48,914 nucleotides of DNA from a phage. Below, in pieces: positions 32,209-34,814 of this stretch. The notes beneath the pieces were generated by a model. The model did not search any database and was not told where the DNA came from. It saw only the letters and a program-made list of their open reading frames with translations. Each line of letters opens with the position of its first letter. Position 1 is the stretch's first letter. Made by a program: the position numbers and the translations under genes. The stretch is taken from the sequence record PZ445533.1. The stretch is one strand, 5' to 3'.

Positions 32209-33324
32209 ATGAAAAATGTAAAAATTACAGATGAGCAATTCAAAATCGAACGGGCGGCGGGTAAGACATATAAACAGATCGCTCAAGAGTACGGAATGAA
32301 TGTGAGAAGCGTCGAGCGTCGCGCGGCGCGCCTTGCAAAGCAAGGCCAGGTATCCACCATTGGAGCGCCTGGTTTTGGCGTTCATGGTGAGTCAGTAATG
32401 ACTGACAAAGAAGGCAACATAATCCTAAAGTGGACTAAAACCAGCAAGGATAAAGAGCAATTAGAAGCATTAATGCGCGCAGCAATGGAGGCATTTAGCG
32501 AGGAAGTGCCGCGATTAGATCCGGTTCCATTACAGGAGCGCGACTATAACGAAACGCTTTCCTTGTATCCGATCTTTGACATGCACTTAGGCGCTATGGC
32601 CCATAAGCACGAATGCGGCGAAAATTGGGATACTGCCACGGCAGAGCGCGTTATGAATAACTTTATCGACTATGCTTTAATGTGCGCACCGGATAGCGAA
32701 AAGGCTGTCATCCTGATTGGTGGCGATATGCTGCATAGCGACGGCCTGGAGGCGGTTACACCTGCAAGCGGTCACGTACTGGATCAAGATAGTCGATATG
32801 CAAAATTGGTTTACGTTGCCATCCGTGCAATGCGACGCGCAATCAATAAAATGTTGTTAAAGCATAAACATGTTGAAGTCCAGATCGTAGAGGGCAATCA
32901 TGACCAATCAGGAATGATTTGGCTACGCGCAGCAATGGCGGCAGCATATGAAAACGAGCCGCGCGTTTACGTTGATGTTTCCCCTCGCGTTGTGCACCAC
33001 ACGCAATACGGAAAAACTTTCCTTGCGTACCATCACGGGCACACAGTGCGTAAACCGGAGGATTTGCTAATGATGTGCGCGTCAGATTGGCGGGAGGACT
33101 TCGGAAACTCAAAAACGATGTATGCGCACGTAGGGCACTGGCATCACCAGACCGTGACAGAAACGTCGCTTGGCATCGTTGAGGTGCATAGCACACTGGC
33201 GGCAAAAGACGCATACGCCGCGCGAGGTGGCTGGAGATCTCGACGCCGTGCGGCGGTTATCATTTACGACAAAGAGCATGGAGAGGTGGGGCGATTTGTT
33301 CACTATCCAGAAATGATGAATTGA
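32209..33324 (+). CDS. HTH domain fused to calcineurin-like metallophosphoesterase (Mre11/SbcD-like motifs)
   Basis: N-terminal HTH-like segment (YKQIAQEYGMNVRSVERRAARL); DxHLG, GD, GNHD, GHWHH phosphoesterase motifs; start 32209 inferred. Confidence 0.5.
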   Translation: MKNVKITDEQFKIERAAGKTYKQIAQEYGMNVRSVERRAARLAKQGQVSTIGAPGFGVHGESVMTDKEGNIILKWTKTSKDKEQLEALMRAAMEAFSEEVPRLDPVPLQERDYNETLSLYPIFDMHLGAMAHKHECGENWDTATAERVMNNFIDYALMCAPDSEKAVILIGGDMLHSDGLEAVTPASGHVLDQDSRYAKLVYVAIRAMRRAINKMLLKHKHVEVQIVEGNHDQSGMIWLRAAMAAAYENEPRVYVDVSPRVVHHTQYGKTFLAYHHGHTVRKPEDLLMMCASDWREDFGNSKTMYAHVGHWHHQTVTETSLGIVEVHSTLAAKDAYAARGGWRSRRRAAVIIYDKEHGEVGRFVHYPEMMN

Positions 33325-33469
33325 TGAATTTTTATTTAAATCAATGACAAATTAAATCAAAAACTTGCAAAGGGGCGGCGTTTGTCGCCTCTTTTTTTTG
33401 TTTAATTTTTTACCATGTACGTTTATCATGCGGTCAATATATTGACTTTAATTAATATGGAGAATAAAA

Positions 33470-33685
33470 ATGAAAGATTTTATTAACGCAGCTACCGCTG
33501 GATCTGGCGGTTCATCTATCGCAAGCGCCGCTACAGGGCAGTTAACCATTGCTATTGCCAGCTTTGTTTTAATGGCTGCATTCGGTGCATGGGGCGCTTA
33601 CCTTCGCTGGCGTGATAGTAAAAAATTCCACGAAGCGATCGAAAAAGGTGATATTCAAAAAGCTATTGAAATCAGGGGCAAGTAA
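33470..33685 (+). CDS. Holin (putative)
   Basis: 71 aa, one or two TM segments, charged C-terminus, immediately upstream of endolysin (TAATG overlap). Confidence 0.55.
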
Positions 33686-34176
33686 TGAGCATAAAGAACA
33701 GGGTAGCGGCTGCGGCCTTTGGCGTTGCGGTTGCCTTGACTTCTCCACTTCTTGAAGAGATCGAAGGGGTAAGATACAAGCCATACAAAGATATTGCTGG
33801 AGTATGGACGGTTTGCGCAGGAATCACCGGACCAGATGTTATCCTGGGGAAAACGTACACTAAAAAAGAGTGTGATGCTTTGTTGGCTAAGCATATCCAG
33901 GTTGCTAAAAAGGAAGTTGACAAGCAAGTTAAGGTTGATATTCCTGATAGTATGCGTGCAGCAATGTACTCATTCACTTACAATGCAGGTGTGGGAGCTT
34001 TCAGAAATTCAACAATGCTGAAACTCATCAACCAGGGGAAATTAAACGAGGCTTGCGATCAGCTTTATCGTTGGACTTATTACCATAACCCAAAAACAGG
34101 AAAGCGCGAGAAGTCTAAAGGCTTACTTAACAGGCGCAAGGTCGAATACAAATATTGCACAATGGATCTGAAATGA
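33685..34176 (+). CDS. SAR endolysin, T4-lysozyme-like (GH24)
   Basis: E-x8-D-x5-T catalytic triad pattern ([19 protein letters not shown]) preceded by Ala/Gly-rich signal-anchor-release segment. Confidence 0.8.
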
Positions 34177-34568
34177 TGAAGAATTTTTTACTTACACCAA
34201 TCGCAATGGCGGTGATCTTGTCTGGATGTTCAAGCGTTACGCCACTGACCGGATTAATCGGCAGTAAGCCGGAAATCACAGCACAGGCTGGAGCGGAGAA
34301 CGTGAAGCAGACAGTTGGCATTACAGCAAAGCAGGACGCCAGCACAAAACAGGAAACCACAATAAAGGAATCTGCGGTTGACAAGGTGGACACGTCCAGC
34401 AAGAAGGATTTCACAACATCAACCATTCAGGCCAATACCATCAAGGCAGACAAAATTCAGGTCGTGCAGGGTAATAACGGCAGATGGTACGATCCGGTAA
34501 TCATATGCGTGGTTGTGTTAATTGTGCTGATTTTTCTTTACTGGAGAGAAAAGAAAAAGGAGGCTTAA
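34176..34568 (+). CDS. Unimolecular spanin (T1 gp11-like)
   Basis: N-terminal lipoprotein signal with lipobox LSGC plus C-terminal TM helix (VIICVVVLIVLIFLYW) in one polypeptide; overlaps endolysin stop. Confidence 0.7.
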   Translation: MKNFLLTPIAMAVILSGCSSVTPLTGLIGSKPEITAQAGAENVKQTVGITAKQDASTKQETTIKESAVDKVDTSSKKDFTTSTIQANTIKADKIQVVQGNNGRWYDPVIICVVVLIVLIFLYWREKKKEA

Positions 34569-34582
34569 TGCCTCCTTTATTT
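34549..34582. terminator. Bidirectional terminator between convergent spanin (+) and small gene (-)
   Basis: AAAAAGGAGGC TTAATG CCTCCTTTATTTTT. Confidence 0.6.
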
Positions 34583-34808
34583 TTATGCGTCGGGCCACAT
34601 ATGAGTTTCGTTTGTTGGCTTGTTCGATTCGTCGTACTGCCTTACTTCAATGCTGCAAGTGTCGCCGTACATTTCTGCAATCTTGCGCTCATTTTCAACC
34701 GCCGATTGCTCACTCCAGCCTGAATCCTTATCGTAAACTGTCGGGATTTCAGAAGAAGATCCATTTGCATGATTGTATACGCGAACTACTAAAAACTTGC
34801 TGGACATA
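34583..34808 (-). CDS. Hypothetical protein
   Basis: 75 aa from ATG 34808 with AGGA RBS, directly downstream of motif cassette. Confidence 0.5.
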
Positions 34809-34814
34809 ATTTTT

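Follow-up and report, generated by a model that had tools for sequence, protein, structure and literature searches.

Organization of the lysis cassette and its relatives

The window, that is, the whole stretch of 48,914 nt of phage DNA analysed here (sequence record PZ445533.1), carries three overlapping plus-strand genes at positions 33470–34568. The first open reading frame (ORF; 33470–33685, 71 aa), assigned to a holin, is preceded by a Shine–Dalgarno sequence (GGAG, 33459–33462), and its stop codon shares one base with the ATG of the endolysin gene (TAATG; 33685–34176, 163 aa), the stop codon of which is in turn overlapped by the ATG of the spanin gene (ATGA; 34173–34568, 131 aa). The program-made ORF list gives a TTG at 34155 as the start of the spanin gene; we took the ATG, as annotated in the relatives. 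The elements are arranged in the order terminator, candidate promoter, holin, endolysin, spanin and bidirectional terminator, after which follow genes on the minus strand. The sequence features listed for this region in the initial annotation, which described it as a lysis cassette, were all recovered where it had placed them. The similarity of the three products to known lysis proteins is far beyond chance: the first matches the PHROG holin family phrog_2877 from end to end (3.8e-32), the second the Pfam family Phage_lysozyme (PF00959, 3.6e-39), which makes it a GH24 muramidase, and the third the PHROG family of Rz-like spanins, phrog_1804 (2e-47).

A megablast search with positions 33300–34700 yielded 85 GenBank phage records that cover at least 80% of the query, 20 of which are at least 99% identical to it, with phage AV105 (99.8%) being the best match. 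Over the whole cassette and its flanks, the Warwickvirus phages AV105, tinuso, swan01, tonn, JLBYU01 and FritzSarasin share 96–99.8% nucleotide identity with the window, from which they are separated by only a few point differences. The three genes are labelled putative holin, putative endolysin and putative unimolecular spanin in the record of JLBYU01, and holin, endolysin and u-spanin in that of FritzSarasin. The cassette is thus already known: nearly identical genomes in GenBank have it annotated, and it has been described in the literature on spanins and T1-like phages. For instance, a core module of exonuclease, holin, endolysin and spanin genes has been reported for 508 of the 522 Drexlerviridae (PMC13164509), and cassettes that combine a pinholin with an endolysin of the signal-anchor-release (SAR) type house spanins of the T1 gp11 family (PMC6139136). 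By sequence identity, the window is assigned to the genus Warwickvirus, subfamily Tempevirinae, family Drexlerviridae. The earlier description of the phage as T1-like accordingly stands at the level of the family, whereas the genus is Warwickvirus of the Tempevirinae and not Tunavirus.

In phage T1, the same three genes are found in the same order, downstream of an exonuclease gene and closed by a bidirectional terminator. The holin, endolysin and spanin are 71, 163 and 131 aa long in the window compared to 71, 162 and 133 aa in T1, and all three are full-length homologues of their T1 counterparts, with identities of 55% for the holin and gp13 (E = 4e-29), 66% for the endolysin and gp12 (E = 1e-80) and 44% for the spanin and gp11 (E = 8e-38). 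The two phages differ in what lies upstream. In the T1 record, exonuclease gene 16 and the holin gene are separated by two genes, one for an HNH endonuclease and a small one for an SH3-domain protein (PMC13164509), whereas the corresponding interval of the window (33325–33469) contains neither an SH3-domain (DUF7244) gene nor an HNH gene. The SH3 gene is mainly found in the Tunavirinae, Braunvirinae and Rogunavirinae, a list in which the Tempevirinae do not appear (PMC13164509), and its absence from the window fits this distribution.

Two further observations were made in the course of these comparisons. The cassette looks mosaic when set against that of phage grams, a member of a different genus (Hanrivervirus): the spanin is 92% identical, the endolysin 83% and the holin 77%, and the DNA upstream of the cassette is only ~71% identical. 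Furthermore, 20 records named 'Campylobacter phage' (MG065641–MG065687, host Campylobacter jejuni) align with nearly the whole lysis region at ~71% identity; by appearance, these are genomes of T1-like coliphages listed under Campylobacter.

Terminators, candidate promoters and an upstream palindrome

The cassette is flanked by two predicted rho-independent terminators. The upstream one (33369–33402, plus strand) consists of a stem of 11 pairs, including six GC pairs, at 33369–33394 and a following T run, and is predicted to end the transcription unit of the upstream exonuclease/phosphoesterase gene; the record of phage Sip lists a terminator at the same position, and that of T1 has one behind its homologous exonuclease gene, gene 16. 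The downstream one (34556–34578) is bidirectional, overlaps the spanin stop codon and is predicted to stop transcription both of the lysis operon and of the minus-strand genes that converge on it, with terminators annotated at the matching position in T1 and Sip.

The upstream gene itself (32209–33324, plus strand) shows a weak N-terminal helix-turn-helix (HTH) resembling sigma-70 region 4 (PF08281, E = 0.0018, residues 17–41), followed by a match to Metallophos (PF00149, E = 0.0083) that, at 17 bits against a cut-off of 21.5, lies below the Pfam threshold. Just upstream of the terminator hairpin, a block of the form AAATCA..A..TT (33353–33372) has positions that are invariant in 11 of 11 genomes, T1 included. 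When sought as a TLS-like 21-nt direct repeat, the conserved AATCA..TTGCAA block upstream of the terminator was not repeated within the window; nor is TTGACTTT enriched in the window.

The best candidate for the promoter of the cassette is located at 33401–33429 (plus strand), where a weak −35 element (TTTAAT, 33401–33406) is separated by a 17-nt spacer from a −10 element (TATCAT, 33424–33429), with a putative transcription start near 33436. In each of the 11 Drexlerviridae that were aligned, including T1, a TAnnAT hexamer falls into one and the same column, and 17 nt upstream of it lies a weak −35 element; apart from this hexamer, the intergenic sequence upstream of the holin gene differs between T1 and the window. 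If this promoter is active, transcription would start inside a perfect 14-bp palindrome, GTCAATATATTGAC, at 33433–33446, the right half of which carries the motif TTGACT (33441–33446). The palindrome had been singled out in the initial annotation and is real; it ends 23 nt before the holin ATG.

The palindrome does not stand out statistically. The window contains seven perfect palindromes of at least 14 bp, compared to 3.9 ± 2.2 expected from first-order Markov simulations, 14% of which reach seven, and 2.6–5.9% of randomised versions of the 145-nt intergenic region (27.6% GC) contain one. No other copy within two mismatches was found in the window, and matches with three mismatches are within chance. 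The RNA around the palindrome and the holin start shows no hairpin or structure sequestering the Shine–Dalgarno sequence beyond that of shuffled sequences (z-score −0.40). The palindrome is intact in six sequences, namely, the window, JLBYU01, Sip and three IMG/VR contigs; in FritzSarasin and mar001J1, a C to T change in the left arm (C33435T, GTTAAT...) breaks it, and no such palindrome is seen in Hanrivervirus, Changchunvirus, KLB26 or T1, despite their conserved lysis genes. Only the TTGACT half is conserved and the left arm is not.

A perfect intergenic palindrome lying over the putative transcription start, identical in six close relatives and preceded by a gene with a weak HTH-like N-terminus, could be read as the operator of a dimeric phage or host regulator that times the transcription of the lysis genes. 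However, palindromes of this length are within chance numbers, a second copy or near copy is absent from the window, FritzSarasin and mar001J1 carry a mutated left arm, the whole element is missing from Hanrivervirus, Changchunvirus, KLB26 and T1, and conservation is limited to the TTGACT half. Moreover, the six identical copies come from the window and phages ~99% identical to it overall, for which reason the retention of the palindrome says little about selection. We therefore consider an operator function extremely improbable; most likely, the palindrome is a by-product of the AT-rich promoter/leader region, and the regulatory role hinted at earlier found no support. This negative result is useful: unless experiments back it, a regulatory function should not be ascribed to the palindrome.

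The conserved half invites another, equally improbable reading. TTGACT is conserved in the genera of the Tempevirinae only, not in T1, and is followed, after an 18-nt spacer, by a −10-like AAAAAT (AAnnAT) that overlaps the holin ATG, an arrangement (within 33441–33471) conserved across the Tempevirinae genera. There is a very slim chance that TTGACT/AAnnAT is an active promoter from which transcription would start inside the holin ORF, and that the full palindrome of a Warwickvirus subset could bind a dimeric regulator. Were this so, the resulting transcripts would encode the SAR endolysin and the spanin only, providing a holin-independent means of tuning the endolysin-to-holin ratio and the timing of lysis.

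Endolysin, spanin and holin

The endolysin is predicted to be a SAR endolysin of the R21 type (class II), an assignment supported by sequence and by comparison with solved structures. Its best solved relatives are 3hde (4.8e-47) and 4zpu (4.2e-46), both aligned from residue 2. The latter is RrrD, and the former, listed just as 'Lysozyme' in the PDB table, we take to be the experimentally defined SAR endolysin R21 of phage 21. Because the alignment begins at residue 2, it takes in the N-terminal hydrophobic segment. The identity between the endolysin and R21 amounts to 54%, and both have a G/A-rich N-terminal anchor without cysteines (PDB 3hde, 3hdf). The catalytic triad E27-x8-D36-x5-T42, which had been recognized earlier as that of a T4-lysozyme-like enzyme, aligns with E35/D44/T50 of R21 and is invariant in the family; the only four cysteines (residues 44, 63, 124 and 158) occupy the same columns as those of R21. 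The spacing between the SAR segment and the catalytic glutamate is six residues shorter than in R21. At the N-terminus, K4 and R6 precede a segment (residues 7–23) that is free of charges and cysteines and consists of G/A/S/T to 53%; its KD hydropathy is 2.0, and its Hessa sum, +2.1 kcal/mol, puts it at the margin of membrane insertion. The Ala/Gly-rich SAR-type segment proposed at the outset is thus present and would be expected to behave as such; it is kept in six family members in the alignment, although its 17 residues compare with roughly 20 that are typical of class II SAR endolysins. The lack of cysteine in the SAR domain sets the protein apart from the class I endolysin Lyz of P1. The same class II hallmarks have been published (PMC9239132; bioRxiv 10.64898/2026.09.09.750462), another class II SAR endolysin of the Drexlerviridae brings about Sec-dependent lysis (bioRxiv 10.64898/2026.09.09.750462) and T1 gp12 is a predicted SAR endolysin (PMC11447400). 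The definitive test for this type of enzyme is release by a pinholin (PMC9239132).

The 131-aa protein is a predicted unimolecular spanin of the T1 gp11 family, as supported by its sequence. Lipobox and transmembrane predictions located both a lipobox, LSGC (residues 16–19, Cys19; strict pattern [LVI][ASTVI][GAS]C), which is identical in T1 gp11, and, C-terminally, a transmembrane domain (TMD), PVIICVVVLIVLIFLYW, at residues 108–124. The latter is the most hydrophobic stretch encoded by the cassette (KD 3.05, Hessa sum −2.8) and is directly followed by REKKKEA. In Escherichia coli lipoproteins, sorting to the outer membrane is governed by the +2 residue; in the spanin, Cys19 is followed by Ser20 and Ser21, that is, serine at +2 and no Lol-avoidance Asp. 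The only other cysteine, C112, sits inside the TMD, leaving the predicted periplasmic domain (residues 20–107) free of cysteines, a property that all u-spanins are reported to share (PMC6139136). Along its entire length, this domain matches that of T1 gp11 at 47% of positions (41/88, E = 1e-25), and the protein thus falls within the gp11 family, for which a minimum of 40% identity across 40% or more of the periplasmic domain is required (Kongari et al. 2018, PMC6139136). When eight members of the family, drawn from five genera, are aligned, LSGC-S does not vary and neither do many positions of the periplasmic domain; each of the eight also has a C-terminal TMD with KK after it, although the sequence of this TMD differs among them. 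A single-sequence AF2 model is confident only for helices at 7–20 and 108–130 (the latter with pLDDT ~85); residues 27–73 have pLDDT values below 50 and no secondary structure called, and the periplasmic domain of the gp11 family is described as consisting mainly of beta strands (PMC6139136). T1 gp11 is the prototype unimolecular spanin and complements an RzRz1 defect of lambda (PMC6139136).

The initial annotation had recognized in this gene the architecture of the T1 u-spanin, a lipoprotein signal together with a TM helix at the C-terminus in one protein, rather than an Rz/Rz1 pair, and had named two findings that would speak against it, an embedded or overlapping Rz1-like ORF and the loss of the C-terminal helix on re-analysis. 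Both were looked for and neither was encountered: a search of both strands between 33400 and 34950 returned no plausible embedded or overlapping ORF with a lipobox, only alternative in-frame starts of the spanin gene itself, and the C-terminal helix is present by hydropathy and in the AF2 model. Two ORFs considered as Rz1-like lipoproteins were rejected, one antisense (34127–34426), with acidic residues ahead of its cysteine, and one on the plus strand (34585–34809), antisense to the downstream gene and devoid of a hydrophobic signal (KD_h −0.45). Matches of the spanin to Cor, RIFIN, TraV and spanin2 were likewise dismissed as due to signal peptide or low-complexity sequence, far below the family cut-offs. 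The Rz/Rz1 proteins of lambda take the same place as the last lysis function and form the same link between inner and outer membranes, but they are two polypeptides, whereas the u-spanin would carry both anchors on one, without an embedded ORF; sequence similarity between the two systems is lacking, and the spanin of the window has no periplasmic cysteine. Phage 21, too, has a two-component Rz/Rz1 spanin instead of a u-spanin.

The earlier call of a holin candidate at 33470–33685 agrees with the phrog_2877 match and with the homology to T1 gp13. By sequence, the protein belongs to this family of its own, outside that of S21, the pinholin of phage 21: no match to any Pfam or NCBIfam holin family was obtained, no BLASTP alignment with S21 was found at E <= 100, and the dual-start motif (MKDF...) is absent. 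The protein has a single strongly hydrophobic TMD, at residues 25–45 (KD 2.0; Hessa sum between −0.4 and +0.45), after which come RWRDSKK and a charged, basic tail. The preceding segment (residues 4–24) consists of G/A/S/T to 76% and is weakly hydrophobic (KD 0.2–0.7, Hessa sum about +7 to +8 kcal/mol), and T9, G13, G14, S16, A20 and T22-G23-Q24 within it are invariant across five genera in the family alignment. S21 68 has the same size and layout, with a weakly hydrophobic N-terminal segment, a strong TMD and a basic tail, and the hydropathy of its TMD1 is similar to or lower than that of segment 4–24, although the two proteins are not detectably homologous.

How the first two proteins act can be read in more than one way. 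Were the N-terminus of the endolysin a cleavable Sec signal peptide and not a SAR anchor, the enzyme would be conventionally secreted, as might be suggested by the layout of residues 1–17, with an n-region, an h-region and a possible signal-peptidase site (AVA|L), and by a hydrophobic stretch of just 17 residues. However, the 54% identity to R21 extends over the N-terminal segment, which is also conserved in the family, and a muramidase secreted freely and in active form would cause lysis ahead of holin firing. In addition, the SAR domain of R21, once released, reportedly becomes part of the refolded enzyme, which requires it for activity (Sun et al. 2009). Taken together, these points make a cleavable signal peptide very unlikely and favour the R21-type SAR endolysin.

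The pairing with a SAR endolysin, the usual context of pinholins, bears in turn on the holin, which might otherwise be taken for a large-hole holin of the canonical kind, with one TMD (N-out, C-in), in which case lysis would not depend on SAR release alone. Only segment 25–45 is strongly hydrophobic, the N-terminal segment scores as poorly as given above, the T1 GenBank record counts a single TMD for the T1 holin and similarity to S21 is lacking, all of which is compatible with a large-hole holin. By contrast, the G/A/S/T-rich composition of the N-terminal segment, with a hydropathy at least equal to that of the SAR-type TMD1 of S21, and its residues invariant across genera argue against this reading; in the literature, the holins of T1 and TLS are classed as pinholins (PMC6139136, PMC11447400), more precisely as proposed class II pinholins (PMC11447400). 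A large-hole holin thus appears unlikely, and the 71-aa holin is probably a pinholin. Because of the missing similarity to S21 and to Pfam or NCBIfam families, the weak N-terminal segment and the one TMD in the T1 record, we infer the status of a two-TMD pinholin from the architecture, from the occurrence beside a SAR endolysin and from what has been published on T1 and TLS (PMC6139136, PMC11447400).

A proposed route of lysis

Overall, the cassette at 33470–34568 is, with high confidence, the lysis operon of a T1-like siphophage that follows the pinholin, SAR endolysin and u-spanin route. In this analysis, the assignment is based on homology, motifs, gene order and hydropathy architecture. 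The dynamic steps, including export, SAR release, the formation of small lesions by the holin, lipoylation and fusion of the membranes, we infer from T1 and phage 21 and from published work, namely, the complementation by T1 gp11 (PMC6139136), the work on R21 and family-wide surveys (PMC13164509).

The three genes would be co-transcribed between the two terminators and translationally coupled through their overlapping stop and start codons. The endolysin would be exported by the host Sec system and, as in the case of R21, tethered to the inner membrane in an inactive form by its weakly hydrophobic SAR segment, while the holin would build up in the inner membrane until it triggers at a set time. 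The holin probably makes small holes, upon which the proton-motive force would collapse; depolarisation would free the SAR segment, allowing the lysozyme to refold with E27/D36/T42 in a competent state and to degrade the peptidoglycan. The spanin, lipoylated at Cys19, would be sorted to the outer membrane with its C-terminal helix remaining in the inner membrane; being anchored in both membranes, it would span the periplasm. Once the peptidoglycan mesh is gone, the spanin would disrupt the outer membrane, probably via fusion of both membranes. Without adding anything new to the biology of this group, the analysis bears out how the lysis genes are annotated and assigns the window to the Drexlerviridae.
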